A stretch of DNA of 64,000 nt from Candidatus Bathyarchaeota archaeon. Lineage in GTDB: Archaea; Thermoproteota; Bathyarchaeia; 40CM-2-53-6; RBG-13-38-9. Shown here piece by piece: positions 5,410 to 41,914 of this stretch (the first letter of the stretch is position 1; each line of letters begins with the position of its first letter). The stretch is taken from positions 416,001 through 480,000 of the forward strand of contig CAWECG010000003.1 in assembly GCA_963807605.1 (NCBI GenBank), written 5' to 3'. A model generated the notes under the pieces. It was not told where the DNA came from and did no database searches. It saw nothing but the letters and a program-made list of their open reading frames with translations. A program made the translations under genes and the position numbers.

Positions 5410-5529
5410 TGGCGGGCCCGCCGGGAATTGAACCCGGGACCCCGACCCAGGACACACTTTGTGTCTCCTTCCGGGTGGCCTCCAAAGTCGTTAAAAGCCC
5501 GGTACTCTACCTGACTAAGCTACGGGCCC
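5410..5529 (-). tRNA. tRNA-Lys(UUU) with two introns (37/38, 15 nt; 43/44, 28 nt), CCA encoded
   Basis: Spliced product GGGCCCGTAGCTTAGTCAGGTAGAGTACCGGGCTTTTAACCCGGGGGTCCCGGGTTCAATTCCCGGCGGGCCCGCCA folds as a cloverleaf; both introns fit BHB geometry. Confidence 0.92.
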
Positions 5530-5530
5530 G
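5508..5530. repeat. att site (left) overlapping the tRNA-Lys 5' end
   Basis: ACTAAGCTACGGGCCCG at 5514-5530 is identical to 41704-41720; 22/23 match over the extended 23 bp. Confidence 0.9.
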
Positions 5531-5549
5531 TCCTTATTGTCCCTAACTA

Positions 5550-5568
5550 ATCCTTATATCTTTGTCTC
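5550..5568 (-). promoter_or_regulatory. Island-supplied BRE/TATA promoter for tRNA-Lys
   Basis: Minus strand AAAGATATAAGG ~25-35 nt upstream of tRNA G1. Confidence 0.5.
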
Positions 5569-5593
5569 TTCCATGTGTTTCTTTGGGTCAGGG

Positions 5594-6937
5594 ATGGTAA
5601 GGACAAGCTATAACCATGCTTTGGTTAAAAAAGCTTCACAACTTGTTGGTAGTAGTGAGGCGGTTAGGAAGTGGTATGATGAGATTTCATTCACAAAACA
5701 GCCTCGTACAAGCTGCGATTATGTCAATGAACTTGCATGTTTTTGTGAGGATGTTAAGAAGACGCCTGAACAGCTTCTCGAGTTAAATGCCAAACACGCT
5801 TATGAACTCATGAAAGGGTGGGCGGGTCAGAAGATTAGGTTAAAGGTATATTCTCTTAAGACTGTCCATGCTCGATGGTATGCTATTCGGAGTTTCTTCA
5901 AATTTCATGAGATCGAGATCAAAGACGATTTTCCAATCCCGCATATCCGAACTAAGTTTTCTGATAAGATACCTACACGAGAGGATCTTCGTCAGATTCT
6001 TAATGCTGCCTCCTTTTTTAACACAAAGATTGGTATCCAGCTTCTCGCTTATTCTGGAATTCGACCTGAAGACATTTGTGATTTGACCTATGCTTCAATA
6101 AAACATGATTTCGAGAAAGAGATCTATCCTTGCTCTGTGTACGTGGCGCAGGGCAAAACGGGTGATGTTTATGTTACCTTCATGCCTCGTCAGACTGTAG
6201 AGACAATCAAGCAATATTTTAAGTTGAGAACTAAAAAGGGTGAGAAGATCGAGGATAACACCCCACTTTTGCGATGCCAAAGAGGAAAAGAGGTTAGAGG
6301 CATTAGGCGGAGAACCTTAAGCCACAAGATTAGGGAGGTTCTATTAAAGAGTGGAGTGGAAATAAAGGTAGAAATCGGTGATAGAATCAGGCGGATGCGT
6401 CCTTATAGTCTCAGGAAGTACTTCAGAAGCAACCTCTCAAGTGAAATGCAGACCGAGTTCAGTGAAGCTCTGGTTGGACACATAACGGGTTTGGCTCAAA
6501 TTTACAATGGGATTAGAGACTTGGATCCTGCTGCAATTGAGAGAATGAGAACAGCCTACTCTAAAGCGGAGTCCTTCCTTCTCGCTGATGGTGTAAATAT
6601 AGAGGGTCTACAAGAGATGTCTAAGAAGCTCAAGAATAATGAGGAGGAGTTGGCGTCTATTCGTTCTGAACTAATAGAATATAAGAAAGAAGAACTACAA
6701 CGGACAAAGAGACACATGATTCAAGAACTTCAAAGATTTAAACAGATTTCCAAGACCGAGGAAGAATTCCTGTCCAACTTTGATGGTTACATAGAAGGTT
6801 ATATCGAGGGTATCAGAAATTTGGCTGCGCAGGAAAAACGACCGCTGAGCGAAAGGGAAATGGCGGAAATCGCGCTAATTCAGACTATCACTACAGAAAC
6901 AAAAAGGGCTGTGTTCCGTGCTACTCCCATGGTTTAA
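5594..6937 (+). CDS. Tyrosine recombinase/integrase of the island
   Basis: SGIRPED (R), GKTG (K), YSLRKYF, LVGH, QIYNG (Y); C-terminal coiled coil; ATG at 5594 preferred over TTG 5537. Confidence 0.9.
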   Translation: MVRTSYNHALVKKASQLVGSSEAVRKWYDEISFTKQPRTSCDYVNELACFCEDVKKTPEQLLELNAKHAYELMKGWAGQKIRLKVYSLKTVHARWYAIRSFFKFHEIEIKDDFPIPHIRTKFSDKIPTREDLRQILNAASFFNTKIGIQLLAYSGIRPEDICDLTYASIKHDFEKEIYPCSVYVAQGKTGDVYVTFMPRQTVETIKQYFKLRTKKGEKIEDNTPLLRCQRGKEVRGIRRRTLSHKIREVLLKSGVEIKVEIGDRIRRMRPYSLRKYFRSNLSSEMQTEFSEALVGHITGLAQIYNGIRDLDPAAIERMRTAYSKAESFLLADGVNIEGLQEMSKKLKNNEEELASIRSELIEYKKEELQRTKRHMIQELQRFKQISKTEEEFLSNFDGYIEGYIEGIRNLAAQEKRPLSEREMAEIALIQTITTETKRAVFRATPMV

Positions 6938-7041
6938 GCCTGTGAGGTGGGCTTTCTTACTAACACTTGGTAACTCAGCAGGAAATGAAAGAAGAATCAA
7001 CGGGGAAAAAAGTAAGGACTAAAAAAGCTTCCGTTCCGCGA

Positions 7042-7296
7042 TTAGGCTTGTGGCGGCGCCTCTACTGCTTTTACCCTCTTCTTTCTTGCAGGAGGTCTGC
7101 CCCTTTTCTTTCTCGGTCTGCCCCTTCGTTTTCCTAGTGGGCGACCCTGTCTCTTTACAGGTTTGTTGACTATTGACAGGACGATATCTCTAATAGTTCC
7201 CTTAATCTCAGCTGGGACAGCGTTTATACTGTTCCTTAAGCTTTCAGCGGAGGTTAGCACTTCAGATATTATGCTTGAACTCTTCCTTCTCGGCAT
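7042..7296 (-). CDS. Small basic protein with tandem GRP (AT-hook-like) motifs
   Basis: KRQGRPLGKRRGRPRKKRGRPPARKK. Confidence 0.6.
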   Translation of the reverse strand: MPRRKSSSIISEVLTSAESLRNSINAVPAEIKGTIRDIVLSIVNKPVKRQGRPLGKRRGRPRKKRGRPPARKKRVKAVEAPPQA

Positions 7297-7591
7297 AAAG
7301 ACACGTCACTACTATGTCTCACCCAACGTTAATTTAGCGTTATGCCTTTCTCCCTCTGTTTCCTCTTTATGGATAGCAGTAGAATCGTATGTTAGAGAAA
7401 TGACGATTAAAGAGCAGGCTAGACAAGCAATTCTTTGAGAGCCTGAAGGGCTGGATAAATTCAAAAGATACTAATGCGAGTAATATGAATCAAAATCTAA
7501 AACCGATGGTTAGTGGGGAACCTGAAGTAGTTGTCCCCGCCTTGTTGGATCGCACTCTGAGCTACAGAAACAATCAGTAAGTCCAGAAATG

Positions 7592-7723
7592 TCATGGTTA
7601 CTACTAGCCTGGCACTTACGGAACCATGCGGCACATGACTTGACCCCACAAAAGGTACTTGTTCAGCGATTCGGTGAAATTGTCCAGAGTCTAATGAACA
7701 CACTGTTTCTTTCTGTTCAATAG
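7592..7723 (+). pseudogene. C-terminal fragment of a HEPN-like protein
   Basis: Manual translation LAWHLRNHAAHDL (RxxxxH); no intact start. Confidence 0.45.
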
Positions 7724-7789
7724 GTTGCTACGCGAATATGAAATGTAAATCAAGATTTTCTAAGCATATGCAAAGGACATTAGACTAGC

Positions 7790-8113
7790 ATGTGTTCGAG
7801 AGGAACTAAAGTATTAACATTCGAAGAGTGCCTTCAACAAATAGTCGAGAGCGCTCTCTCAAAACGTTTGGCTCTCTGGCTTGGTGCAGGAATATCATGC
7901 AAGCCACCTGCAAACTTACCATTAAGCAGAGAATTGAAGTTCCACATTCTCGAGAGGATTTGTCAATCAGACATGTTATGCCATATGTACGAGGAACGTC
8001 TACGCGGCCACACGCACACTGATTTTGTTTTGGGAAAACTAGAGGAAATCATAAGAGCGAGACGCGCCTTACTTACCCAAGAAGGAAAGAAAGTTGAAAG
8101 GATTAACGAGTAA
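7790..8113 (+). pseudogene. Truncated SIR2-family N-terminus
   Basis: LALWLGAGISCKPPANLP = sirtuin GAGIS..P motif; only 107 aa. Confidence 0.6.
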
Positions 8114-8369
8114 AGAATACCTGTTCTTGAGGGTATTGGCTACTGTTATTTTCATTAATACCGTTGTTTTCTACGTTGCCTCACTCCACATGGAAACTTT
8201 CGTCGCTAATTTCTTTGAGGTTGTAGCGTTGACTACTGGCCTTACGGTCTTCGTTCTTACAATACAACTGCTGTTCTGGTGGAAATACCTACGAAGAACG
8301 GACAATCAGCGATTTTGGAGATGGGATGCAAGTACCCTCTTTTCTCGGAAACTAGAGAACTCGAACTAG
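8094..8369 (+). CDS. Small two-TM membrane protein
   Basis: Two hydrophobic segments. Confidence 0.45.
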   Translation: MKGLTSKEYLFLRVLATVIFINTVVFYVASLHMETFVANFFEVVALTTGLTVFVLTIQLLFWWKYLRRTDNQRFWRWDASTLFSRKLENSN

Positions 8370-8415
8370 ACTGAGTTACTTTTTGCGTTCTGACCTCCCA
8401 CAGAACGCTAGAACA

Positions 8416-8985
8416 CTACCACCCGATAATGCAACAGAGCACCTTTCCTGGGGGGCGTCCTCGCCGCTTTGCAGGTTTGCTGACTATCGCCTTAGCCATG
8501 TCTCTAATCCTATCTTTAATCTCAACTGGTACGTATCTTTCGAAAGACTCTTGTAAGACGATTCGCTCAGGCTCTGATAAGTCGGAGTTACTTGAGAATT
8601 GGGCGATTTCATACCATAGAAGAGTTGTGTTGACGCGTCCAGATTCGACTGCCTCCCTGATTGTTTTCCTGCCCTCCTCTACTCCAAAGTTCAGTGCTAT
8701 GGAAATAGCGAGCCAGACGTTCAAACCAGCATCATTGGGACAAAACCTCACACCTGCCCGAGCAGCCTCTAGCGCCTGTGGCTTCTGATTCGCAGATCTC
8801 AGAGTAAGGATCTTGTCGTTGTGATAGATGGGATTGTTTGGATTCAGTGTGATCGCAATGTCGTACTCCTTGGCAGCTTCATCAAATCTCTTCAGACCAT
8901 ACAGAGCGACGCCTTTGTTGTTGTGATAGATGGGATCGTCTGGATTTAGTCTGATTGCGATGTCGTACTCCTCAACCGCTCCTCA
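8416..8985 (-). pseudogene. TPR-protein fragment fused to a partial copy of the AT-hook protein
   Basis: Frame upstream of 8751 reads EYDIAIRLNPDDPIYHNNKGVAL..EYDIAITLNPNNPIYHN; C-terminus EIKDRIRDM..KPAKRRGRP resembles 7042-7296. Confidence 0.6.
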
Positions 8986-9596
8986 AATCTCTGCTAACAC
9001 AATTTAATTCTGTCTTGATCTTATCGTAGATTGGAAGGGGAATCACGACGTCACTTGACCCAGGCATAAATCTATTCTTCCATGTCTACTCTTAGCAAAT
9101 AGGTTCTTATTTTGTTATCTACAGGGTAACGTCAAGTTCTCGGTTTCACTTGGTTCGTCGTAGCATCCTGGAGTCCATACTTCTTCCTGGTTATCCCGAA
9201 GCTTTTCTCGAAATCTTGGCGTTTGATCTTCTCGCTGGGAGGACTTGTGAGTTCATACTTGACTTTGAAAAGTTCAGCGAGTGTGAAGAAGAAGCCCAAG
9301 TGAAAAATGTCCTGTTGCTCTTCCGCTTGTAGTCCCAATCGGTCGAAGAGCCGGACTAGGCTCGGCGTCGTTTCCTTAGTTGCGTTCAGAGTGAAGTACA
9401 GGTAGCAGTCACGAAAATCAGCGACGTGCGTTTGAAGTCTTTAGGCTTCTGGTGAGAGGGTGTTGAAGACTGACGTGTAATTCGACCTTTCGACGAAGCT
9501 CCATGATCAGATTCACGGCTTTGCTATGCCAATTCATAGCCGTTTTTTCACGGTCATCAAAATAGCGCATGATGCTGTACGCTCACTCGCAAGTCG

Positions 9597-9652
9597 GTGG
9601 TGGTGCTCACAAAGGGAGTGGGTGGTGGTGTCTTAGCTGGTGATTTTGAACC
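9597..9652. repeat. Pair of CTC-ACCAGCTA family sites (variant forward CTCACAAAGGG 9606-9616; reverse TAGCTGGTGA 9634-9643)
   Basis: GTGGTGGTGCTC arm identical to the one at 14835. Confidence 0.7.
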
Positions 9653-10411
9653 TTCTCTGAAATGTTACTACGGAAAGACCACATCGACCATACAAAAACG
9701 ATTAAGAAAACGCGACTTCAAAATCTATAGACAAGGAAAACAATGCCACGTAGTTGGAAAGCCATCCTCAAAGTGGACATTCATACACTCTATACTAGGA
9801 GCTGCCCTTTTTCTGAATCAAATTAAGTTCTCGTGATGCCAATAATTGTGCCAGTCGTTACAACATAGCAGAAGCAACACACTGTAGTGGTTGTAGGTTG
9901 TAACATAAGAGTCAGCAGAAAACCCACGCTGGTTAAACTTGACCCAATAGTTCGGCCATTTCGGCACTATTTATCTATTGAGTGACTTTGAAGATTAAAA
10001 AAGAATTACAGGCCCCAATTCGTTGGTATTTGTCGGTAGTTTACTTTCAGCGACCCATTTCTTTCCTCCAGTCTCAGAGATTTTCGGTGTCCTATTCCTC
10101 ATCCTTGCGATTCGTTTATTATTACTTTCTCAAGCTTCTTGAGTAGAGATCCTTGAAGCTCTTCGGGCGCATTGGGTTATGCTACCTTGAAAATGTCGAG
10201 GTCTTCAGTAATTTTCCTATACCGTAGGATCATTCATATTTAGCACTTCTTGTACAATGAAGGGGGATCGTCGGTTCATATCTTAGAGACATTTGCAAGG
10301 GATGATATACTCAATTGTCTGCGCGCTTGCTAAAAAAGGATAGATTCGGGCTATTTCTCAGAAGGGTGAACCAACATTGCTAGCGCCATTCACCATGGGT
10401 GATGTCAAAGC

Positions 10412-12337
10412 ATGGGTGGACGAAAGAAAGCCCTGCTAGCATTCCTTATTTGCTTCCTTCTTGCTGCGCTACTTTTTCTAATGCGAGGAAATCCGACGGT
10501 TGGTGCAATCGTTGGTATAATAACACTGGCACCTACGATAGCATGGCTTTTAGGATTCGATCCTAGAGACTTATTCAAGAAACAAACTGGTCGATCAGAC
10601 GCCGAGATCATTGTGAAAGCACAGTTTAGAATGGGGCCATTAAAAGAGCTAACAGAGTCATACCGAGGGGCTGAGGCTATCAAATCTTATGAAGACGGGC
10701 ATTCAATTATTCTTCTCAATCGTTTATCCATCAAAAATGCGGCAATAATGTCTGCATTTCAGCTCATTCAAGAGGGGAGGTATGAGGAGGCCGACGCCAA
10801 AGTCACAACGGAACTCCTAAAGACTCAGGAGATCCTATCCAGCTCACTTCTACTTAGTCAAACGTATCTGATCAGAGCAGACACACTGTTACACAAGAAT
10901 TCCTACTTAGAGGCGGAGAGATACTACGGGTTATCTCACGAACTAGCTACTTCAATCGATAATGTTCCGTTGATGATTGCGTCGGATGATGGCTTGGCAG
11001 TTGCCAAAGGGAGACAAGGCAGAAATTCTGAAGCTCTAGAGATTGTTGAACGGATCCTGCAAGGCTATCCAGACCGCGCTAAAGCATGGTACAATAAAGG
11101 AGTAGCCCTCAGCATGCTAAATAGGAATGATGAAGCACTAGTTGCCTTCGATAAAGCGATTGAATTAGAACCAGACTATGTTGTTGCTTGGAGCAATAAA
11201 GGTACTATGCTCAGCTTACTCGGCAGAAATGACGAAGCCCTTGTTGCCTTCGAGGAGGCAATAAGACTGAAGCCTGATTTTTCCCGCGCGCTGTACAACA
11301 AAGCAGCCTCTCTTCGCAAGCTGGGAAAAGTCGATCAAGCCTTAACTGCGCTGAAAGAGGCTTCTAAAAGAAGCACAAGGGATAGTGATTCATTAAATCA
11401 TGAAGGTGCCATCCTCGGCGAATTCGGCAAACATAAGAAGGCCCTAGCTGTTTTGGAAGAAGCACTAAGGCTGAACCCTAAAAATTACGAGGCGTGGTAC
11501 AACAAGGGAGTTAGTCTGTATCGACTTGGCAAACATGAGCAGGCACTGGACGCATTCAATAAGGCAATAGGGCTAGACCCGAACCACAGGGATGCATGGT
11601 TTGACAAAGGGATAATTCTCAAGAATTCTGGAAAGTATGAACCCGCCATAGCGGCATTCGATGAGGTCACAAAAATTGATCCTAGATTTGGTGCGGCATG
11701 GTACAACAAAGGCTTAGTCCTCGGCATGCTTGATAGGGTGGGTCAAGCACTGGTTGCCTTTGAAGAATCCATAAAACTAGATCCAAGCAATGCTTTTGCA
11801 TGGTATAACAGGGCAATAGCTTTGCGTAAGCTCGGCAGATTAGAGCAAGCTCTAGATGCCCATGAACAAGCACTTAGGATCGAGCCTAAGCTTGCAGCGG
11901 CGTGGGATGACAAAGGAGTCATACTTTCCTCGCTCGGCAAGTACAAACAAGCCGTTTCTGCCTTTGAAGAAGCCCTGAAAATTGACCACAATAACGCGCA
12001 GCCATGGTATAATAAAGGACTTGCTGAATTGAGGCTCGGAAAGTTTCAAGACGCTGTGAATTCCCTTGGAGAGTCCCTTAGACTCAACCCTCGAATCATT
12101 CCTGCATGGAATGACAAAGGAGTCGCTCTGATTGAACTTGGTGACTTCGAGGAAGCTCTATCAGCTTTTGAGGAAGTTCTGAAACTCGATCCAAATCTCG
12201 TTGCAGCGTGGGTTAACAAGGCAAACGTTCTCCGCAAGCTCGGGAGATTAGAAGAAGCTGATAGGGCAGCTGATCGAGCACTGGCGATAGCGCGAGCTAC
12301 TAATGATAGAACCAACAACAAAAGAAGTTTCAGATAG
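10412..12337 (+). CDS. Membrane-anchored tetratricopeptide-repeat protein
   Basis: Two N-terminal TM helices; about 12 or more AWYNKG-type TPR repeats. Confidence 0.92.
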   Translation: MGGRKKALLAFLICFLLAALLFLMRGNPTVGAIVGIITLAPTIAWLLGFDPRDLFKKQTGRSDAEIIVKAQFRMGPLKELTESYRGAEAIKSYEDGHSIILLNRLSIKNAAIMSAFQLIQEGRYEEADAKVTTELLKTQEILSSSLLLSQTYLIRADTLLHKNSYLEAERYYGLSHELATSIDNVPLMIASDDGLAVAKGRQGRNSEALEIVERILQGYPDRAKAWYNKGVALSMLNRNDEALVAFDKAIELEPDYVVAWSNKGTMLSLLGRNDEALVAFEEAIRLKPDFSRALYNKAASLRKLGKVDQALTALKEASKRSTRDSDSLNHEGAILGEFGKHKKALAVLEEALRLNPKNYEAWYNKGVSLYRLGKHEQALDAFNKAIGLDPNHRDAWFDKGIILKNSGKYEPAIAAFDEVTKIDPRFGAAWYNKGLVLGMLDRVGQALVAFEESIKLDPSNAFAWYNRAIALRKLGRLEQALDAHEQALRIEPKLAAAWDDKGVILSSLGKYKQAVSAFEEALKIDHNNAQPWYNKGLAELRLGKFQDAVNSLGESLRLNPRIIPAWNDKGVALIELGDFEEALSAFEEVLKLDPNLVAAWVNKANVLRKLGRLEEADRAADRALAIARATNDRTNNKRSFR

Positions 12338-12385
12338 CATTAGAAAAATCAACACGAATGAGTCTATCGATATTAGAAGTAGGTA

Positions 12386-13144
12386 ATGATCTTGGATGAG
12401 CATGCGTTGGACAGACTGCAGGAGAAACTGAATCTGGGAAGGTTCGACAACACTTTTTTGATTGGAATTCCAGTAAGTTTCTTTCTGATAAGTGGATTCT
12501 ACACATGGCAGAAAGGGCTATTCGTCAGCCTCGGCTTACCTATGAATCCATATCCTTTCTGGATATACCCGACTGCTCTCATATGGATGGCGTCTGTCTG
12601 CTATTTATTTGCATACTTCCATGACAATCTAAAACTCAGGTTGTGGGTTTACAATTTCTATTATTATTTTATCGTCGTCAGCGCGATCCCCTTTGGCTAC
12701 GCACTGTTCTTGAAACTGAATGGTTTATTTTACGCAAGTCTAAAAGAGTTTATGTTTCTCGCATATGCGTACAATTATGTCTTTTTCTTAGTGGGGGGAA
12801 TCTATGTTTATAGAATTCTTGGAGACTACTCATACTCCGCCTTAATTAGATGGTTGAAGACAAATGCTCCAATGCGCTCAAAAGAGATAGAAGTTGATTC
12901 TAAGACGTTTTTGCTACTCTGGCCGTATCGGTCGGTGAACATCAGAAGATCCATAGAGGTTTTTGCATTTTTGACTATCCCTGAATCAATGTTCATAATC
13001 TTCAGCCTGTACGTTATGAGGACAGAAAACAAAAATGCAGCGGTTGCTTTATGGTTCTTTCCGTCATTCTACATGCTCTTTTTGATTGTGATTCATTTGA
13101 TTCTTCGCTATGGAATCCCTCCAACTCGTCATGAGAGCAAATAG
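12386..13144 (+). CDS. Multi-pass membrane protein
   Basis: About 6 hydrophobic segments. Confidence 0.7.
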   Translation: MILDEHALDRLQEKLNLGRFDNTFLIGIPVSFFLISGFYTWQKGLFVSLGLPMNPYPFWIYPTALIWMASVCYLFAYFHDNLKLRLWVYNFYYYFIVVSAIPFGYALFLKLNGLFYASLKEFMFLAYAYNYVFFLVGGIYVYRILGDYSYSALIRWLKTNAPMRSKEIEVDSKTFLLLWPYRSVNIRRSIEVFAFLTIPESMFIIFSLYVMRTENKNAAVALWFFPSFYMLFLIVIHLILRYGIPPTRHESK

Positions 13145-13155
13145 ACTACAGGAGA

Positions 13156-13185
13156 GTCGTCGTCGCTCACCAGCTATGGTGTAAA
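13156..13185 (+). repeat. CTCACCAGCTA site (core 13166-13176)
   Basis: GTCGTCGTCG-CTCACCAGCTA-TGG, ~20 bp after a stop codon. Confidence 0.85.
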
Positions 13186-13347
13186 TTCCCATGGCAAATT
13201 GTTAAAGCATCATATCATAATCTAATGTGGAGAGCTTGAGATGACAGGCTCGACTTCTGTTATCGTCGTAGATTCGAAGCCACACATGAGAGCATGACTA
13301 GGTGGCTAATTACGCGCACGTAAATCGATCTCAGAGAATGGATTCTG

Positions 13348-13905
13348 ATGGAAGACGAACAGGTGAAAGAACTAGTCTGCTATCAATGCGATCCAAAGGG
13401 CGTAAATCGGAAGATAGTGAAAGTTGAGCAAAACGAAGGCGATAAGATTCGCTACCTAGAATGCGGCCACAAGTCACGAATGTTCTTCCGTACCCTGTCT
13501 GATCGCGTAACTGTATCAGATTCATTTTTCACATCTCTAATCATCAACCCGCTCCCAGAGATTGAGCAGTCGCTCAAGAATCAGGATTACTTTAGGGCTG
13601 TAGCGTATCTTGCAGCAATGCTCGAATACTACGGAAAAGTTTCCATTGATGCGACACTCAGAGCACAAAATAGGAACATAGATAGTGATCGCCTCGACAG
13701 GTTTGGTTTGGAAGAAGTAGCGATTCTTCTCTACAGCTTTGATATAATCGACCAGCCTTGCTATTCGGCGGTCCTCAGACTTAGCAAGCTTCGCAATAGG
13801 CTTCTACACATCAAGGACATGGCTGAATTTCGGACAACTCTGGGAGTTGAAGCTGAGACAGCTGTAAAGAAAGGAATGGAATGTATTCGTGTTTTAATGA
13901 AGTGA
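13348..13905 (+). CDS. Zn-ribbon + HEPN-like protein
   Basis: CYQC..CGH; C-terminal RNRLLH (RxxxxH). Confidence 0.6.
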   Translation: MEDEQVKELVCYQCDPKGVNRKIVKVEQNEGDKIRYLECGHKSRMFFRTLSDRVTVSDSFFTSLIINPLPEIEQSLKNQDYFRAVAYLAAMLEYYGKVSIDATLRAQNRNIDSDRLDRFGLEEVAILLYSFDIIDQPCYSAVLRLSKLRNRLLHIKDMAEFRTTLGVEAETAVKKGMECIRVLMK

Positions 13906-13958
13906 AATCAGAGTTCTAGGATGATCAAGAACTTTTATAGAGAGATCTTAGGGTTTTC

Positions 13959-32820: not shown

Positions 32821-33456
32821 TTGAGAAAAATGGAACGTATACTATCAATTGTGGGGATTTCCATAATTCTGATAGGAACACTTGTTCTTGCAAGTTTCCT
32901 TGGATTTGAGAGTACAGTGGAGCAGGTATTCGACGATGTTCTATTTGATGAGGTTCACAGAGAACTGGCTCAGTTTGCATTTACGTTAACGTCAAAAGGA
33001 GCGTTCACAACTAATTATCCGATCCATGTCAGAGTTCGAGTTCTCATAATCGAGAAACAGGTTATGGAAATGCTACCTATCCAGGTGGTGTTTCCTAATG
33101 CCTGTGAGTACCCTCGTAGAGTCGTGACCCCCTTAGAAATACCAGCCGTAGCTCGAGTATCTATTAGCAACATCTCTCCATATTGTGGAGAGGCATATAT
33201 GGAGTTTACCTACTCGGGAACCTTTGGCTACATGATCTTCTTAAAAGATAACCCACTATGCGAGACTGTTCGCCAGAAGATAATCACGGTGTCCCCTTAT
33301 GAAGTGCGACTGCAAATTGACAATGTTAGAAGACAGCTAGGGATAGGTATAGTTGCTCTCGGCATAGCGATCACGAAAACGAAGATCATAGTACATTACC
33401 ACAGTCATAAGGTAGTCTATATCACGCGCCAAGAGGAATTTTGTACGAGGCTCTGA
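32821..33456 (+). CDS. Membrane protein
   Basis: N- and C-terminal TM segments. Confidence 0.6.
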   Translation: MRKMERILSIVGISIILIGTLVLASFLGFESTVEQVFDDVLFDEVHRELAQFAFTLTSKGAFTTNYPIHVRVRVLIIEKQVMEMLPIQVVFPNACEYPRRVVTPLEIPAVARVSISNISPYCGEAYMEFTYSGTFGYMIFLKDNPLCETVRQKIITVSPYEVRLQIDNVRRQLGIGIVALGIAITKTKIIVHYHSHKVVYITRQEEFCTRL

Positions 33457-33479
33457 GAACCAAGAATCTTAACCTAAAG

Positions 33480-33712
33480 GCATACTCAACACGATTTCCA
33501 ACAGACAATACTCATTTGAAGCAGAGGCAATAGCTTACACAATATCCAAACACTTTGGCATAAATTTAAATTCGGATACCTACCTGGCCATATGGCAAAA
33601 AGAACCAAAGAAAATCATTGAGAGTTTTGAGCGGATGCATGGTGTGGTAAACAAGATCATAACAGAAGTGGAGCAGACAGAAACACGGCAGATACTCACC
33701 GTCACCCGCTAA
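33480..33712 (+). pseudogene. C-terminal remnant of an ArdC-associated metallopeptidase-like protein
   Basis: Manual translation EAEAIAYTISKHFGI..SDTYLAIW. Confidence 0.55.
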
Positions 33713-34106
33713 GAGATCAAAAAGATATGACTATAACGGCATATGGAACAGAAGAAGACGCAACAAAAGAGACAGAAAAGATAAAGAAACTATACCCCAA
33801 AGCCAAACTCCTCGCCCCATCCCAATACGTGTGGATACGCATGATTGCCAAGCATTTGGAATAAGATCCTTTGAAGGTGAGGAGTTGGAGCAGGGCGAGA
33901 TCCGCTACATACTAGCAGCCTCAACAGAAGAAGCAACAAACTGGAATCTCAAGAGTAAATTATTATAAGGAATGAAACGCATTTTTTTTATGCTGATTTT
34001 TTTCAAATTTCTATATATCTACCTATTTATCTAACATATCATCTTACAATTTCCTGCAGTAGTAGGACATTCAAACACCCTATACACACCCCACATATGT
34101 AGTACC

Positions 34107-34161
34107 TTACATTCACAGAAACGGTGGGGGTGGGTATGGCGGTTCTGGTAGCTAGGTGCTG
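34107..34161 (+). repeat. Direct repeat copy 2
   Basis: Matches 25504-25563. Confidence 0.8.
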
Positions 34162-34559
34162 TCCTAATTGGTGACTTGCATCGTCAGTTGTGTATCATGG
34201 TGTCTCTCAAATCTCCCGTTCTTGCCCAGTTCCTTCGCTATTCATTTAATCTCTTCAACGATTTCTTTCTTAGTTGTCGTTCCCTCGCCTCCTAAACAAG
34301 GACTAGCACAAGAGCTCAGTAAATGATTCTCGGACGATTCCACTAATCTTGCTTCATTATGAACGCACACTTTGCCTTAGCCGTTGAGCATAGCAGAGAC
34401 TCTCGAATTCTTCGTCGGTCAGTTGATCCCATTCTAGCACACTTGATCCGACCTATCGTGACCGTCGTGGTACCTTGAATGTACTTCCTAGTACGCGCAC
34501 TATGGAATAAATAGCTATATTACCAAAATGAGTAAGGAGTCCTTACATAAGGGATAGTC

Positions 34560-35072
34560 GTGTCGTCACTTCGTGTTATGATATTCATAGACGGTTCAAA
34601 TCTATTCAAAGCATCAGAACGATATAGAACGGGGTATCGCCCTGACCTGGCGAAACTCCAAGATAAGTTGGTCAAGGGTCGAACGTTGATGAGAACCTAT
34701 TACTACTGCTCAATAGCTAATCCACCAAGAATTGAGCAGATCAAGTTTCAAGATAAATTGAAAAATCTACACATCCAAGTGGTTTCTAAGTCTCTCAAAA
34801 ATCGTCCTACTGGTGAAAAGGTTGAAAAGGGGGTCGATGTTGCACTTGTGACTGACATGCTTAGCCTTGCGTTTCGTAATGCGTATGATGTAGCCATTTT
34901 GGTCAGCGGCGATAGCGACTTCCTTCAAACGGTGAATGAAGTCAAACGAGCTGGCAAAAGAGTTGAAATAGCTTCATTCAGGTTCACTATAGGCAAGGAG
35001 TTACAAACGGAAGCTGACGATTTCATTCCAATTGAACCAATAGCCGATGAGATAGCACTTGAGCGAGGCTAA
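34560..35072 (+). CDS. NYN-domain (LabA/DUF88) RNase
   Basis: IFIDGSN, EKGVDVAL, LVSGDSDF, GKRVE. Confidence 0.92.
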   Translation: MSSLRVMIFIDGSNLFKASERYRTGYRPDLAKLQDKLVKGRTLMRTYYYCSIANPPRIEQIKFQDKLKNLHIQVVSKSLKNRPTGEKVEKGVDVALVTDMLSLAFRNAYDVAILVSGDSDFLQTVNEVKRAGKRVEIASFRFTIGKELQTEADDFIPIEPIADEIALERG

Positions 35073-35149
35073 GTTTGATGGTGGCTACACACGCGTAAAA
35101 CGCAAATTATAATAATACGTAAGATAAGGTAATGTGTACATCACAACCT

Positions 35150-35301
35150 AGCAGTAGGTGGGGATTACCCCTAGTGACGGGAAACCGTCAACCAACTGCT
35201 TAATTTGACTTATGTGGTGGGGTATTAGTACTCTCCCCAAGGATTGAAAGCGGTTCTTGGGGGAGGGGTGTACGGGCAACCTGCACCTTACACCCACCGC
35301 A
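35150..35301 (+). ncRNA. Candidate structured ncRNA (two tandem three-way junctions)
   Basis: Nested helices with GAAA/GCAA loops and G-U pairs on the + strand; TTATAAT upstream at 35107. Confidence 0.6.
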
Positions 35302-35329
35302 CTTGTTCTAAGACCTAAACATGAGCACT

Positions 35330-35521
35330 TCACAGGCTTTCAATTTTGAAAATGTAGTCTTCTTTGTTGCATGTATAGGTCTTGCCGCATCGGGGACACT
35401 TTTCTTGAATGTTTTGTAACGTTGCGGTTTTGAAGGAAGCGTAGTCCATCTGCATTATTGAAGGATGCATAAATCGGCATTCTGATACCTTGCATATTGC
35501 CAGTAAAGGCATAACGAGCAT
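35330..35521 (-). CDS. Small Zn-ribbon protein
   Basis: CKVSEC..CPRCG. Confidence 0.55.
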   Translation of the reverse strand: MLVMPLLAICKVSECRFMHPSIMQMDYASFKTATLQNIQEKCPRCGKTYTCNKEDYIFKIESL

Positions 35522-35810
35522 CGCTAGTACTGCTTTGTACTACTTCTACCTGCAGTATCGTCATGATGTTTTGCATAACCTCTATTTCATGTTAAAGTTA
35601 CTTTAGTCTTCAATGTATTGTGACACTCTCCTAAGCGTAACACAGCCAATGAACGTCTAGCAAGCGAGATCTACAAGGGATCCTGACCGTTATAATTTCC
35701 AGTATATCGAGCTCCAGTTATCCCAACCTTTCAGTTTCAATAATCCTATTATTAATCTTGCATATCTCAATGCAAGCAATGTTTCCAAAAAAGGAGCTTT
35801 TCTGTCTTTC

Positions 35811-35999
35811 TTATCCTAGAGTCACGACCTTACCGCAGTTACTACATTTCAATAAGAGGATCTCATACTGGACTCCACTAGCGGGGATTCTGGTTTGGTC
35901 AGCGGTATATAGTGGTAGCATCATGGCGTCTTTTGTCTCTTCTTTCTTAGCACAATCAGGGCAGGGAGGATAATGCTCGAAACTCAGACTGATTGACAT
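35811..35999 (-). CDS. Small Zn-ribbon protein
   Basis: CPDC..CSNCG. Confidence 0.55.
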   Translation of the reverse strand: MSISLSFEHYPPCPDCAKKEETKDAMMLPLYTADQTRIPASGVQYEILLLKCSNCGKVVTLG

Positions 36000-36179
36000 A
36001 GCAACTCACTAGTCTATTTTCCATTATCCCTAGAAAACTATGGGTCAACGTTATTTGGTGGTGGATAATGGGTGAGCGCATCTTAATTTGGACACATTCA
36101 TAACCTTAGACCCTAGATATCCTAGCATTCAAAACCTTAGAACCTAACCAAATTGGCTGTCTGAGTGTAAATTGGTGCG

Positions 36180-36200
36180 CGAATCCCACTCCCCGCACCA
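36180..36200 (+). other. tRNA 3'-end fragment (tRNA-Leu-like), probable relic att site
   Basis: CGAATCCCACTCCCCGCACCA = T-loop, T-stem, acceptor strand and CCA. Confidence 0.55.
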
Positions 36201-36327
36201 ATACGCGCCTGCGTGTTGACGCAAGCCCGCGCGTATGTCGGCAAGATTGGCTCGGGATTTCACGGCAGTCATACAAAGAAATCGTGGCGACGCCGCTGAA
36301 GCTGCACGACAATTATACAATTAAGAT

Positions 36328-36600
36328 TCAAGTACGTGTCAAAGAGGAAGTTCCGTGAGCGATTCTTGGAGAAGGCTCATGCAATCTATCTTTTACTTTA
36401 CTATCGAGTTCTAAAGTGGCCTTCTCGTGATGGGTCGTGACAGGAATTTTGATTGTGTTGTCGGGTTCGGTCTGGATATGTCTGATACTTCGAAGGGCAC
36501 TTGTGAAATGTGCTTTTCTACAGACATCGCAGTATCTTAAGCCTCTGCTCGTCTTTCTTCCGCAATCAACACATTTCTCAGATACGTCCAGCATCAACAA
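36328..36600 (-). CDS. Small Zn-finger protein
   Basis: CVDCG..CDVC. Confidence 0.45.
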   Translation of the reverse strand: MLMLDVSEKCVDCGRKTSRGLRYCDVCRKAHFTSALRSIRHIQTEPDNTIKIPVTTHHEKATLELDSKVKDRLHEPSPRIAHGTSSLTRT

Positions 36601-36887
36601 CTCACCAACGATTTACGATACGGGAAGCAGAATAACCGCTGAGAGCAAAACTATCCCACAAAACCGTTATCCCTTCAAAACATTATGTCATGAAGTTAGT
36701 TAAGAGCCATCATATAAAACCATTGTCACCTAGGCGTCTCGAACTCGGTTACACTAGACTCCTCCGGTCGTCCTCTTGACCGCAAAATTAACTAACCGTC
36801 TGGTTTTCATGCTCGCATTTCGATTTGCAGATTTACAGACTAATGAAAATCGATCTCTCTTGGTAAGACCTTGATCTAAACCTTCTT

Positions 36888-37093
36888 GACTATGGATATC
36901 ATAGTAAGTCAGCAGAAAGATGGAGCAACGGTAACAGTCGATTCAAAGCCCAAAGTCTGGTATAATCTTTCTGGATCGGAACGGGCTAAAAGAAACGCAG
37001 AGGCTCTACTTGACGAATTAGATAAACAAGTATGATGAAGGCCCATCCCACAATCCCCCTCTACAGAATGCTATCGTCGGTTCTGTCAAGTCT
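36888..37093 (+). repeat. ~206-bp direct duplication, copy 2
   Basis: Near-identical to 26455-26661. Confidence 0.95.
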
Positions 37094-37188
37094 ACGTCGG
37101 TTGACAGATGCTGTAAAAATACGTCGGGTGGCGATGGGTGTTGCACCCGAAAGGGCTCTGTTAAGTTGGCGGTTGCCTGTTCAGGCTG

Positions 37189-37548
37189 TTAAGTTTCGGT
37201 TGATGGCAAAGGGTTAATTTCTTCGATTGGACAAATATTTTGTCTCTTCTTGCACCAAGCTTTTCCCTCTTCCGCTAGTTTTTTCTGCACTTCAAATGAT
37301 AAACCAGCCAATACGGGTATCTCTAAACTTGGGCATGACACTTCAGGTATTAATGAACCTCTGACCTCCTTTCTCGGTTTCTCGACCCGCCTGTATTTTC
37401 CATCTGACCCTTTCCTTTGTGTTATGACAAGCTCATCTGGGTCAAAGAATTTTGTTGTTATTTCATCTACCCCAGTTATTGGGCAAATTTTCCTGATAAT
37501 TTTAGCAAATTTTTCTGTTGATTTAAGCCCATAGCGAATTTTACCCAT
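37189..37548 (-). CDS. Hypothetical protein
   Basis: 119-aa ATG ORF with a G-rich RBS-like sequence upstream. Confidence 0.55.
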   Translation of the reverse strand: MGKIRYGLKSTEKFAKIIRKICPITGVDEITTKFFDPDELVITQRKGSDGKYRRVEKPRKEVRGSLIPEVSCPSLEIPVLAGLSFEVQKKLAEEGKAWCKKRQNICPIEEINPLPSTET

Positions 37549-37947
37549 TACTCATTCCCCCCATATTCTTTGGTTCTGTTAAGTCTTCATAATGGAAGCT
37601 TTAATCCTTGAAGCTTCATCCTCTTATCTAAGTATTCTAGGTTAGGTTTGAATTTTGCATCCGTCGCAAGAGTACAAAACTTCGAATGGTTGGCTAGTTA
37701 TGATAAGGCTAGAAATAGGCAAACTTGTGCGTCTAAAAACATATACCGACACTGACGAGCCAATCTATTGGGCCAACAATCAAAGAGTTTTCCGATTGAA
37801 GAAAGCCTAGTTTGGCTCTATGTAGTCTGCGTCGGATCGATTGGGCTGTAAAAAATCGTCGGATAGAGTCACATTTCTTATGGTAGATAGTTTATGGCAG
37901 ATTCGTGAACAAAGTCGGTTGAGATGTAGACCCTTAGTTATTGGCTT

Positions 37948-38373
37948 TCAAACCTTGAGTTCGTCAGAAGTTAGCTGAGTTTTCTTTCCCCAGAGGGCTT
38001 TCCTCATTTCGGTTAATGTCTTCCAATAACTGGCAGGTGAGGGATTTGCCATAAAGGATTTCACCGCTTGAAGAACCTCATCGGGAGCGAAAAGAACCAT
38101 ACGAGAGTATTCGGCGAAGAGCGTGTTTTGAATATCCTTCTTGGTCTTGATATTATAGGTTTGAAGCACATCGACTGGTAAATGGTCAATTTGGTTGGGG
38201 TACAACAAGACCTGCATATAGATAGGCACAGATCGGAAGCGACTTACCCTCTCTTCGAACTCAGCAAGTTGGGTCTGGGTTCGACGTCTGAAAAACTCCG
38301 AGAAATATGCGCCGACTATTCCCCCTACGCCGAGTCCTGTTAGTAGTGTAAGTACCAACCCATTATCTACCAA
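37948..38373 (-). CDS. Membrane-anchored hypothetical protein
   Basis: N-terminal Gly-rich TM helix. Confidence 0.65.
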   Translation of the reverse strand: MVDNGLVLTLLTGLGVGGIVGAYFSEFFRRRTQTQLAEFEERVSRFRSVPIYMQVLLYPNQIDHLPVDVLQTYNIKTKKDIQNTLFAEYSRMVLFAPDEVLQAVKSFMANPSPASYWKTLTEMRKALWGKKTQLTSDELKV

Positions 38374-38429
38374 GAGACTCCAAATTCAATTCTTACTGAC
38401 GATATTTATGGTTAATGGCGAGAAGAAAC

Positions 38430-38580
38430 TTAAGATGCACTCACCAGCTATGTCACACACAGACAAAAAAATCAATACCTAACGGTTAAAATTCAGATGC
38501 TCTCACCAAGGGACACAGAAAAATAGCTCGCTCTAACGGTTCAAATCCATGTGATCTCACCAGCTAAGGCGCACATACTT
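38430..38580 (+). repeat. Three tandem CTC-ACC sites (cores 38440, 38502 variant, 38556)
   Basis: Units of 62 and 54 bp, each with AACGGTT(C/A)AA before the next core. Confidence 0.85.
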
Positions 38581-38593
38581 TTTTTTAAGGAAG

Positions 38594-39302
38594 TTGCTTG
38601 TCCCTATTCTAGGGAAGTCTGCAATGGAACTTGATTTGGATTCATGGGAACAACGAGTCGCGAATCCAAAGGCGTTGGGTGATGCAGGGAAGACTCTGTG
38701 GAAGAAAATACAACCTGTTCTCAACGACGTTTTGGATGAGATAAAAAAGAACGGGAGAATTAACAATTTACGTAAAAGCTGAGATGGACAGACTCAGTGG
38801 CCCAATCAAAATGCTTGAAGAAATAACCGCAACTTACAACACGGTAATCCATATCTTTGAGAGACCGCAGGAAGAGCGGTTGCGATTCTTCCAGGCAATC
38901 CAACCATTCGGTTTCGAAGAAGCTAGTGTGACCCGCATGCATCTAACGTTGGCGGTAGCGATCACTGTTCTTTCAACAGAACTCTTCAAGCTAGTTCTGC
39001 TATTTCATATGAAAGATGTAAGCCCTGATGTCTCAAAATTCAATATCACAATGCAAAGTTCTGCTCCCAAAACTTGGCCGCTGCTCAAGCTTTTCGTTGA
39101 CAATGATTTTCGCAACGCCTTAGCGCACGGTACGTACGCTATTGTCAACAAGAAGATTGTCCTCTACAGGGATACAACGCTGATTCCATTTGAGGAAATG
39201 GAGCTTCACGAGTTCATGATGAGGAGCAAAGATCAGAATGTGCTGTTTCACTGCCTCTTCAATGTCTTAGCGGCTAAGAAAAGATTGGGCTTCTTCACTT
39301 GA
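38594..39302 (+). pseudogene. HEPN-like protein split into two ORFs (38594-38782, 38784-39302)
   Basis: FRNALAHG (RxxxxH); adjacent ORFs suggest a frameshift. Confidence 0.55.
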
Positions 39303-39375
39303 TCAGTTCGATTAACTAGACTTAGATCCGAAGTATGTGACTTCTGCGAGCGTAGCGAGCCATTAGATTATGATT

Positions 39376-39460
39376 TGTGTGTGTGCCATAGCTGGTGAGC
39401 ACACACAATTAACCTGCTCCAACGGTTCAAATTACGATGCTCTCACCAGCTAAGTTGACA
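39376..39460. repeat. Inverted pair of sites (reverse core 39389-39399, forward core 39442-39452)
   Basis: GTGTGTGCCA-TAGCTGGT-GAGCACACAC ... GATGCTCTC-ACCAGCTA. Confidence 0.9.
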
Positions 39461-39519
39461 AAAGTTAAAAGACTCGAGCAGTAGATCATTAGTCTTAGAT
39501 GAGTTTGTGAGGTGATAAG

Positions 39520-39891
39520 ATGCCAAAAATGGAAGTAAAGAGTCTGAATTCTCCGGATGAAGTGAGAACTTTCGAGAAGGGGAAGCTGGAACTTGTAAGT
39601 ATTGGAGGAGCAACGGTTGTGCGTTATACACTGGAACCTGGGTGGCGATGGTCTAAACACGTCAAGCCAGTAGCGAAGACCGAGAGTTGTGAGGCTCCAC
39701 ATTTTGAATATCACGTCTCAGGAATTATGCATGTTGTGATGGATGATGGTACAGAAAGAGACGTGAAAGCTGGTGAAGTCTCCTCAATTCCGCCAGGACA
39801 CGATGGTTGGGTTGTTGGAAACGAACCTGCGGTCGTAGTTGATTTCCAAGGATTGGTCGATTACGCCAAGCAGCCACCAAGAAATAAGTAG
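39520..39891 (+). CDS. Cupin-domain protein
   Basis: LEPGWRWSKH..CEAPH..IPPGHDGWVVG. Confidence 0.9.
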   Translation: MPKMEVKSLNSPDEVRTFEKGKLELVSIGGATVVRYTLEPGWRWSKHVKPVAKTESCEAPHFEYHVSGIMHVVMDDGTERDVKAGEVSSIPPGHDGWVVGNEPAVVVDFQGLVDYAKQPPRNK

Positions 39892-39920
39892 CATTCCAAA
39901 ACCATTTTTTTGTGTCCCTT

Positions 39921-39951
39921 TGTGTGTGTGCCCTAGCTGGTGAGCACACAA
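39921..39951 (-). repeat. Reverse-oriented site (core 39934-39944)
   Basis: TGTGTGCCC-TAGCTGGT-GAGCACACA. Confidence 0.9.
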
Positions 39952-39958
39952 TGGATTC

Positions 39959-40528
39959 CTAGACGTTATCGCGGTAATTCCATACCTTCCGAAGAGTTTC
40001 CATATATTCTCGGTCTGCGTTTGGATAGAACTCTTCAAGCCTTTTCCATTTCTCGCGCATTTGGGTGACGTCAAGCATCCAGTAGGCGTCCTTCATGCTG
40101 ATTTCTGATGTACTTACGATGAGTCTCACGAGATACTCCTTGAACGATCCCTTCGCGCTCAAATAGCGTTCACTTGTGCCGAATATCAGATCAGCTATTT
40201 CATTTATGGAATTACTTGCTTCAAATGCGAACCATAACAGGGTTAATCCTTTGGGGTCAAATTGCGAGTAGTTCAACTGTCCCCATTCCTGATAGTATCT
40301 GCTGACAATTTCAGGATGAATCTTCTCCTGAATCACGACATCAATTAGTGACTTGCCACTCTTGAAGAGTCTAAACAGCCTTGATGCTAGCTCGCCGTTT
40401 AACTCAGAGCTGACTGTCCTTACTTCATCCTCGCTATTGGTGCTGAGGGATTGCGGCTTGAGTGTCCTGTGTATTGTTGTGATGGAAGAATTTGTTACCT
40501 TTGCTATGACTCTATAGCTCATCTTCAA
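39959..40528 (-). CDS. HTH-containing hypothetical protein (possibly 5'-truncated)
   Basis: MSYRVIAKVTNSSITTIHRTL HTH. Confidence 0.55.
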   Translation of the reverse strand: MKMSYRVIAKVTNSSITTIHRTLKPQSLSTNSEDEVRTVSSELNGELASRLFRLFKSGKSLIDVVIQEKIHPEIVSRYYQEWGQLNYSQFDPKGLTLLWFAFEASNSINEIADLIFGTSERYLSAKGSFKEYLVRLIVSTSEISMKDAYWMLDVTQMREKWKRLEEFYPNADREYMETLRKVWNYRDNV

Positions 40529-40548
40529 TGCTCTAAGCCGTTTGATCC

Positions 40549-41409
40549 ATGCTGCCAGATCCTCGTTTTCCTGCTGTTTCCGGGGGTATCGTGTACGTAG
40601 GCTCAGGGGATGGTAAGGTGTATGCGTTGAATGCTGCTACAGGAGCCAAGGTATGGAATTACGCAACAGGCGTCCCTGTCGCGTCTTCTCCTGCTGTTTC
40701 AGGTGGTATCGTGTACGTAGGCTCATTTGATGGTAATGTGTATGCGTTGAATGCTACCACAGGCGCCAAGGTATGGAATTACACAGTGCGCTACGGTGTC
40801 ACAACTTCTTCTCCTGCTGTTTCAGGAACCGTTGTGTACGTAGGCTCATTGGATGGTAAGGTGTATGCGTTTGCACCTACTTCAGCTCAGGTGGCTTGTG
40901 CCACGGGCACTGGGACGGGGACGTTCACTATGAGTCCGAGTACTGCTGGAGGATTCACAAGTCTAACCGCTTCAGCATCATCGAGTGTCTCACCCGCTCC
41001 GCCAGCAGGGTTAACGTTTCCTGACGGCTTATTCTCCTTCACAATCTCAGGTCTCGCACCGAGGGCAACTGTTACAGTAACCCTCAAGTTGCCTGCTCCG
41101 TTGCCGGCGGGTTCCTTCTCGTATTGGAAGTTTCAGTCTGGTGTGTGGAGTCAGTATTCGTCGGCTTCGCTTGATTCCACTCGAACCATTATCACGTTAA
41201 CCTTCACCGCATCAGCCAGTGGCACAATTACTGACCCTGGGGGCCCAGCAATCGTGCCGCCTCCTCCGTCCGCAAGACCGGTCGGAGGCGTCGTGGAACC
41301 CGTCAACAAACTCACACTTCTCACACCATATTTGGCCTTCTTCGGAGTGGTCGCGGCTGTTGCAGTCGTCATTGTGACGGATAGGAAACGCAGAGAACCC
41401 ACAGACTAG
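40549..41409 (+). CDS. PQQ-type beta-propeller repeat surface protein with C-terminal anchor (N-terminally truncated)
   Basis: SSPAV.GG.VYVGS.DG.VYA repeats; PVGG + TM + basic tail. Confidence 0.75.
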   Translation: MLPDPRFPAVSGGIVYVGSGDGKVYALNAATGAKVWNYATGVPVASSPAVSGGIVYVGSFDGNVYALNATTGAKVWNYTVRYGVTTSSPAVSGTVVYVGSLDGKVYAFAPTSAQVACATGTGTGTFTMSPSTAGGFTSLTASASSSVSPAPPAGLTFPDGLFSFTISGLAPRATVTVTLKLPAPLPAGSFSYWKFQSGVWSQYSSASLDSTRTIITLTFTASASGTITDPGGPAIVPPPPSARPVGGVVEPVNKLTLLTPYLAFFGVVAAVAVVIVTDRKRREPTD

Positions 41410-41439
41410 TCAGTGAGCTGATTTCGCAATCCCTGATTT

Positions 41440-41510
41440 TGTGTGTGTACCTTAGCTGGCGAGAGCATCTAGAATTGAACCGCTTGGTATTGATTGATGG
41501 TGTGTGCTCG
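41440..41510 (-). repeat. Reverse-oriented site (core 41453-41463, one mismatch) with accessory motif
   Basis: Minus strand AAGCGGTTCAATTCTAGATGCTCTC-GCCAGCTA-AGGTACACACAC. Confidence 0.85.
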
Positions 41511-41697
41511 CTCCGTGCAAACGTGGAGCGTCTTGACGTCAAAAGTTCTGCAGCGCTAGGCAGACGGGGATACCTTCTCTTTCTCTACAGGGGCGAGACG
41601 GTCTCTTCCCTTTCAAAGGAGGCGGTATCTCTCTCTAATAGTTCCAAGACACACACTAGCGCCCCAATATAAGATTGATACGGGTTCGTAAGGATAG

Positions 41698-41720
41698 TAC
41701 CTTACTAAGCTACGGGCCCG
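41698..41720. repeat. att site (right): orphaned 5' end of tRNA-Lys
   Basis: Minus strand GGGCCCGTAGCTTAGT, preceded by a TTTTTTAAT box at ~41746-41755. Confidence 0.9.
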
Positions 41721-41914
41721 CGCAGTAGCACCTACTCTCCTTTGCATTAAAAAAACCTTTCAGCAAAGCTGCTTAGAGGAAACAGAGCCTCGCCGTTGTG
41801 TACCCAATAATCGGCTATTTCATCTAGTCGGGCTATCCGCAAAAGCGACGAACGAGAAAGGCTTTAAAGTTACTCTGAAACCTATAGACAAGCTTGGCTG
41901 GACTAATAGGCCGT

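Follow-up and report, generated by a model that had tools for sequence, protein, structure and literature searches.

Recombination within the 5′ region of tRNA genes is much rarer than recombination within the 3′ region, the cited 5′ cases being a Mesorhizobium element, elements of Thermococcales and Methanococcales, and, out of 39 elements, a single one in Caldiarchaeum (PMC6563490). A 2021 review singled out the pTN3-like integrases as the only archaeal ones to use the 5′ half of tRNA genes, and the tRNA is said to be expressed in these elements from the integrase promoter; Bathyarchaeota are not mentioned in that review (PMC8371274). Nor is the integrase clade treated below described in the papers on Bathyarchaeia viruses and Asgard elements that were consulted. 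Here we analyse a stretch of 64,000 nucleotides from a Candidatus Bathyarchaeota archaeon (GenBank assembly GCA_963807605.1, contig CAWECG010000003.1, positions 416,001 to 480,000; hereafter, the window), which contains a 36.2-kb island, island A, at the 5′ end of a tRNA-Lys(UUU) gene. Very probably, island A is an element that integrated in the 5′ end of this gene and rebuilt it behind an element promoter, and it did so as a habit of the integrase clade to which it belongs.

The pTN3-like integrases of Thermococcales (Cossu et al. 2017; Krupovic and Bamford 2008; PMC8371274) resemble the island A integrase in that they have their chromosomal attachment site, attB, in the 5′ part of a tRNA gene of an archaeal host, and they likewise restore an intact tRNA, which is expressed from the integrase-promoter region of the element (PMC8371274). 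However, they belong to the SSV type, in which the integrase gene is split, whereas the island A integrase gene is whole, has its element attachment site, attP, upstream and is found in other hosts; it is set apart from the pTN3 integrases by gene architecture, not by sequence comparison. CalSub-E1 of Candidatus Caldiarchaeum subterraneum (Krupovic et al. 2019, PMC6563490), which we liken to island A by its description, stands alone as a 5′ case among the 39 tRNA-targeting elements surveyed; it lies in tRNA-Ser, and neither a clade-wide pattern nor a conserved promoter block was reported for it (PMC6563490). With the pNOB8-type elements, which are non-partitioning and use tRNA 3′ ends, island A shares an intact integrase gene beside attL, a short tRNA-fragment repeat and the character of a cryptic island, but it uses the opposite end of the tRNA and so brings a promoter instead of a 3′ end. 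In bacteria, the Mesorhizobium loti element that Zhao and Williams described in 2002, under a title stating that it "reverses the usual target gene orientation", reportedly replaces the 5′ end of a tRNA gene and must supply the promoter; this is said to be a sigma-type promoter, and the integrase is said to be unrelated to that of island A. Targeting of the 5′ end with supply of a promoter is already known, if rare, and what is new is a non-partitioning lineage that does so systematically. The integrase group is widespread and apparently undescribed. An earlier note on this DNA, made from its letters, had called such targeting uncommon, and the literature concurs (PMC6563490, PMC8371274).

The locus comprises the following features, given with their positions in the window. 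The spacer and the inverted repeat come from reading of the sequence; BRE stands for B recognition element, and att for attachment site.

5410..5529, minus strand: intact, intron-bearing tRNA-Lys(UUU) gene (Rfam, ARAGORN, single full-length match in the genome)
5514..5530: attL core, tRNA positions 16 to -1 (exact repeat)
5531..41703: island A, 36.2 kb, between the att cores
5531..5593: island spacer between the tRNA and the integrase gene
5594..6937, plus strand: island A integrase, 447 aa, intact, divergent from the tRNA (PF00589)
41688..41705: inverted repeat, two 6-nt arms around a 6-nt spacer, at the far end of island A, where it overlaps the core
41704..41720: attR core, an orphan tRNA-Lys stub, positions 16 to -1 (exact repeat)
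41747..41761, minus strand: native tRNA-Lys BRE/TATA, cut off from its gene, at -28 to -42 of the stub (conserved in eight relatives)
about 41915..42082, plus strand: divergent multi-intron tRNA-Asp(GUC) gene, the ancestral neighbour of tRNA-Lys (conserved in all relatives)

Detection of tRNA genes relied on Rfam and ARAGORN, and the host genome assembly is referred to as G000 (2.65 Mb), positions on its contigs being prefixed C1, C2 or C3. Rfam matches a tRNA at 5413-5529 on the minus strand with 51.4 bits, and ARAGORN, with introns allowed, calls Lys-UUU with a 39-nt intron at 5410-5529, including an encoded CCA; default ARAGORN, with introns off, finds no tRNA in the window. Many tRNA genes of the host contain at least one intron and escape default tools. 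The gene in the window is the only full-length match to tRNA-Lys(UUU) in the assembly. An exact 17-nt direct repeat at 5514-5530 and 41704-41720 corresponds to tRNA positions -1 to 16, which agrees with the duplication of nucleotides 1-16 proposed in the earlier note, and the similarity continues past one mismatch for 5 more bases (22 of 23 nt). Exactly this one pair is present in the 2.65-Mb genome, with a span of 36.2 kb between the copies, and the window holds no third copy even at 3 mismatches, the average for shuffled sequences being 0.05 matches. Tandem elements were considered and rejected, as the window has no further or degenerate att copies. Island A is bounded at both ends by a repeated tRNA fragment, and its integrase gene starts 64 bp from attL, the layout of a tRNA-targeting integrative element.

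The ancestral arrangement was found in relatives by searching with the right flank as the query. In eight genomes of the same family, one of them from the same genus, an intact tRNA-Lys(UUU) gene is joined straight to a conserved upstream block, consisting of a purine-rich BRE followed by a T-rich TATA element, whose copy in the window lies at 41747-41761. The earlier note had pointed to a TATA-like box upstream of the 41704-41720 copy and to a divergent tRNA-Asp some 195 bp from the stub, and it had looked to relatives for an empty site; all three were borne out, as the relatives have tRNA-Lys joined to the flank that begins at 41721 and divergent from tRNA-Asp. The 1.7-kb contig L021, from the same genus, has the ancestral 3′ neighbour, the intact tRNA-Lys gene and the native promoter in a row, so that neither side of the tRNA is occupied there. 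The tRNA-Asp locus, about 195 bp from the end of the stub, contains a GUC anticodon arm, a T-arm, CCA and variable insert segments; it has no Rfam match even at a loose threshold and no ARAGORN call. In the window, a fragment of the 5′ end of tRNA-Lys is duplicated, the native promoter stays with the stub, and the gene itself stands behind element DNA. Site-specific recombination within the 17-nt core restored the tRNA gene and displaced its native promoter, which was one half of the promoter replacement put forward in the earlier note; the other half, activity of an element promoter, is a prediction that is taken up below.

The integrase gene beside the att site is intact and divergent from the tRNA, as the earlier note had it. 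Its product matches PF00589 with 35.8 bits, against a cut-off of 27.1, and the N-terminus that follows from the start ATG at 5594 agrees with the consensus of 22 homologues. A profile of 23 homologues matches the archaeal XerA structures 4A8E and 5HXY, and alignment to XerA 5HXY places the catalytic residues R157, K188, Y271, R274 and H296 and the nucleophile Y304, which are all invariant or nearly so across the family alignment, Y271 standing where XerA has histidine. Reading through the att site into the open reading frame (ORF) is barred by an in-frame stop at 5516-5518, which lies between this ORF and the att core. Because the ORF is whole and this stop intervenes, the integrase gene was not split by integration. 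No relatives of this integrase were found among the IMG/VR viral contigs scanned.

Homologues at 37-55% identity are encoded in metagenome-assembled genomes (MAGs) labelled Bathyarchaeia, Methanomethylicia, Hadarchaeota and others. A divergent intact tRNA gene, with its 5′ end toward the integrase, was seen in three of four loci on contigs retrieved via protein identity, in all six loci on genome contigs with an upstream flank, and in 28 of 32 metagenome loci with at least 140 bp upstream, two more being recognised there by eye. An intact tRNA thus faces the integrase with its 5′ end first in 37 of the 42 loci with enough upstream sequence, although, to the disadvantage of our reading, some metagenome loci duplicate each other and the counts overstate independence. 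The distance from the tRNA 5′ end to the integrase start is 51-74 bp in 28 metagenome loci and similar in most other loci, reaching about 240 bp in two. The target tRNAs of the family vary, including Lys, several Arg, Pro, His and others, with the calls for intron-bearing tRNAs being unreliable. Upstream of these different tRNAs, most family lineages have a conserved block in which a TATA close to consensus lies about 19-28 nt from the tRNA and some 30 nt ahead of the integrase gene; conserved across differing tRNAs, this block is therefore element DNA. In the phylogenetic tree, the check that the earlier note had suggested, the 5′-adjacent integrases form one clade (support 100/99), separate from the integrase of a second island in the window (island B, described below) and from same-genome paralogues located at tRNA 3′ ends or without a nearby tRNA. 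Integration at the 5′ end is a habit of this clade, not an accident.

Two family members allow a comparison of the distal end. The 11.7-kb element of G032 ends in a 5′ stub, exact over 17 nt, beside a different TATA-bearing upstream region, and in the 3.6-kb element of G033 the distal 5′ stub is degenerate. Alongside both stubs lies a short palindrome, and its half-site is found again on the side of the core that faces the integrase. The layout in the window is analogous, with a motif of its own, at 41688-41705 and, as a 6-nt sequence repeated in the spacer, at 5531-5536 and 5551-5556. The palindrome and the recurring half-sites are candidate integrase-binding sites, and the inverted repeat at 41688-41705 would be a candidate integrase-binding arm.

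Other members of the family differ from this pattern. In L035 (about 3950-4000) and L080 (about 900-995), the core and the conserved block precede a family integrase and the tRNA body is absent; these may be attP forms or integrations into pseudo-sites. A tRNA upstream is likewise absent in L110, which has 43% identity and a longer N-terminus. In L041, L043, L044 and L045, all in MAGs, the integrase frame is broken into ORFs of 52-241 aa, and these loci look like decayed elements in which the promoter block still stands ahead of the tRNA.

We propose that the tyrosine integrase of island A recombined attP, which would have been a copy of the first ~16-23 nt of tRNA-Lys(UUU) fused to element DNA, with those same nucleotides of the chromosomal gene. 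Integration would have rebuilt an intact tRNA gene whose first bases and entire upstream region are element DNA, leaving the native BRE/TATA and the 16-nt stub 36 kb off, beside tRNA-Asp. On the other side, an unrelated second integrase family would have used the last 17 nt of the tRNA for inserting an island of about 65 kb. We infer both the binding sites and the current mobility of island A.

Archaeal tRNA genes are transcribed from upstream BRE/TATA promoters. Because of this dependence, and because no other full-length tRNA-Lys(UUU) was found, the tRNA would have to use the 64-bp spacer, and we predict that it is transcribed from this piece of element DNA. The spacer has a single A/T box, the one to which the earlier note had drawn attention as a new TATA-like box inside the island; it lies at 5552-5560, that is, at -23 to -31 from the first base of the tRNA, and is accompanied by a BRE-like purine run, in the tRNA sense, at 5560-5564, the two together covering -23 to -35. 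Read in the tRNA direction, this box matches the BRE/TATA pattern of host tRNAs. Genome-wide in G000, host tRNA promoters have a BRE of the GAAAG/GAAAC type followed by a TATA element centred about -30 to -35 from the mature 5′ end. Since the box is also about 35 nt ahead of the integrase start, it probably serves the divergent integrase gene too.

Several observations weigh against the reading of island A as a single element that supplies the tRNA promoter. The TATA elements of relatives are mostly centred about -24 from the tRNA, as compared to about -30 to -35 for the host boxes, and their polarity suits the integrase direction better; the use of the island promoter by the tRNA is itself predicted from the position of the box and its BRE/TATA resemblance. 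Integrase genes are decayed in several relatives. Genes for virions, replication and transfer were unrecognised among the ORFs scanned: capsid, portal, terminase or other virion genes gave no Pfam or PHROG matches there, PHROGs gave none on 10 small ORFs, and no transfer ATPases or mating-apparatus genes were seen among the larger ORFs. Genes of archaeal viruses, however, often escape recognition. Finally, island A is a mosaic of segments shared with contig C2, a captured piece and internal repeats, and its 36 kb may not be one original element.

The last point leads to the alternative that survives best, to which we give a little less than an even chance: only the part near the integrase is the 5′-targeting element, and the 36 kb arose by accretion of several elements and captured pieces. 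Four segments of island A (21482-22079, 22362-24327, 33748-34165 and 36167-36782) are shared with C2 at 88-95% identity, a 207-bp repeat occurs inside the island at 26455-26661 and 36888-37093, and the family members with both ends known measure just 3.6 and 11.7 kb. A copy of a chromosomal gene behind a tRNA 3′ stub also speaks for accretion:

36166..36889: captured chromosomal segment, a tRNA 3′-end-like stub followed by a small zinc-ribbon gene (94% identical to C3:354666-355377)

However, the region has one integrase gene and one pair of att cores, and accretion would bear on how the cargo came together, leaving the 5′ integration and the promoter replacement untouched. The 36-kb island of the earlier note stands as to its location in the tRNA 5′ end and its limits, the att cores; in make-up it is a mosaic.

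Another alternative, which we think unlikely, accepts the integration but assigns the box to the integrase only, with tRNA transcription starting deeper in the integrase gene or coming from read-through. In the main family the box does read as a consensus TATA in the integrase direction, and its centre, about -21 to -25 from the tRNA, is nearer than in host tRNA boxes. Yet the spacer is just 51-74 bp in 28 metagenome loci and has one A/T box, the box in the window, at -23 to -31, has on its tRNA side a BRE like those of the host, a single-copy tRNA needs expression, and the same solution has been reported for pTN3-like elements (PMC8371274).

A self-partitioning event of the pTN3-like (SSV) type, with attP within the integrase gene, would have the merit of being a described archaeal case of attB in a tRNA 5′ half with the tRNA transcribed from the integrase promoter (PMC8371274). 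We regard it as highly improbable here: the integrase ORF is whole (447 aa, against 379-453 aa in homologues), 64 bp and an in-frame stop separate the upstream att core from the start codon, and the distal end has no integrase fragment.

The conserved right flank, outside the island, contains an insertion sequence (IS):

42329..43450, minus strand: IS element with a DDE transposase (7 genome copies)

It sits in the conserved spacer past tRNA-Asp, 600 bp right of the stub, has three 100%-identical copies elsewhere in the genome, and is followed by synteny with relatives that resumes at about 43700. A rearrangement or mis-join, for example across this multi-copy IS, that parted the tRNA from its promoter and left the repeat incidental is very unlikely, because the DNA from the stub to the IS and that past the IS are syntenic with relatives and both island junctions show the family architecture, namely the tRNA-integrase junction and, at the distal end, the palindromic arm; the repeat, moreover, is unique and direct.

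The earlier note had placed the tRNA between two integrases, and both are indeed present, but the left flank turned out to be the end of a second, larger island and not chromosome. The features of this island B in the window are:

4078..5352, minus strand: island B integrase, in the same direction as the tRNA, start codon uncertain (weak PF00589 match, E 0.0026)
5410..5426: att core of island B, formed by the 17 nt at the 3′ end of the tRNA, CCA included (partner at C3:356470-356486)

The island B integrase gene starts 57 bp past the 3′ end of the tRNA, and its product is 27% identical to the island A integrase and falls in a separate clade of the tree. Its 17-nt repeat is exact and forms a unique pair in the genome, and the partner copy adjoins the ancestral 3′ flank, colinear with G013 and G001. 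In G013, a small zinc-ribbon gene comes next after tRNA-Lys, and beyond it about 9 kb run colinear with G000 from C3:354415 down to 344440; the chromosomal zinc-ribbon copy of G000 lies at C3:354666-355377, and the spacer at C3:355360-356139 aligns with the same-genus contig. The view that the left flank of the window is chromosome was rejected, since G013 and G001 put the true 3′ flank 65 kb away. By these coordinates, island B measures about 64.9 kb (C3:356487-421409), of which the window carries only the last 5.4 kb. It behaves like a pNOB8-type element. The inserted DNA around the tRNA totals about 101 kb, and only the middle ~85 bp of the tRNA gene need be original. Similar double occupancy is seen in other metagenomes: L031 (2508-5218) has an integrase 78.6% identical to that of island B, 3′ of a tRNA whose 5′ side bears an integrase of the island A type, and L033 (2398-5362) has a 3′-type integrase, a tRNA and a 5′-type integrase. 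For the intron-bearing tRNAs of both loci, the ARAGORN calls are inconsistent on the isoacceptor.

If island A has indeed taken over the tRNA-Lys gene in this way, mobile elements would be able to take over the transcription of an apparently single-copy tRNA, and two integrase families can occupy both ends of one tRNA, leaving ~85 bp of original DNA. A broader proposal, which we put forward tentatively and consider rather doubtful, is that attP of the whole clade includes a copy of tRNA nucleotides 1 to ~24 fused to a compact bidirectional promoter, so that each integration puts a host tRNA, here an apparently single-copy one, under the integrase TATA box. On that proposal, the supply of the tRNA would be tied to regulation of the element, and losing the spacer would carry a cost that gives the element an addiction-like hold; the native tRNA promoter, now orphaned, would drive transcription into the far end of the element. 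This unsplit lineage targets tRNAs of many types, its MAGs being labelled Bathyarchaeia, Methanomethylicia and Hadarchaeota, and most of its members carry a conserved block that would have to serve as the promoter of the tRNA; the lineage would offer a simple, testable archaeal system for the study of bidirectional or leaderless promoter use. For annotators, island boundaries are possible at either end of a tRNA, and intron-bearing tRNAs conceal such sites from default tools.

Island A has a GC content of about 44%, as compared to about 48% to its right. Its cargo includes a TPR protein, HEPN proteins, a type II-like DNA methyltransferase, a SocA-like protein and HNH, together with a ThsB-like TIR protein, S-adenosylmethionine (SAM) methyltransferases, an NYN nuclease and a beta-propeller fragment, and looks like a set of accessory and defence-type genes. 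The island also carries an extra gene of the tyrosyl-/tryptophanyl-tRNA synthetase (TyrRS/TrpRS) family (15946-17280), the third in the genome, the housekeeping copies being at C1:267071-267991 and C3:319602-320444. Short dispersed repeats with a T-loop-like motif bracket accessory genes at 38460-39454 and 39374-41469. Contig C2 is 88.8 kb long and has two integrase paralogues without a tRNA; a terminal overlap was not found, and C2 may be a plasmid or another mobile element.

The zinc-ribbon gene is present in three genome copies. The segment at 36166-36889 is also 95% identical to C2:71118-71733, and the island and C2 copies both have a tRNA 3′-end-like stub in front, while the start of the chromosomal copy falls within a genuine tRNA gene, at its 3′ end. 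The island copy was considered as an argument against insertion and rejected, as three copies exist and the chromosomal one is at its ancestral place. As a matter of speculation, the 0.7-kb segment could have been captured by imprecise excision of another element. The first ~35 nt are repeated about ten times across the genome, a pattern suggestive of att sites belonging to a different element family and of gene capture by imprecise excision.

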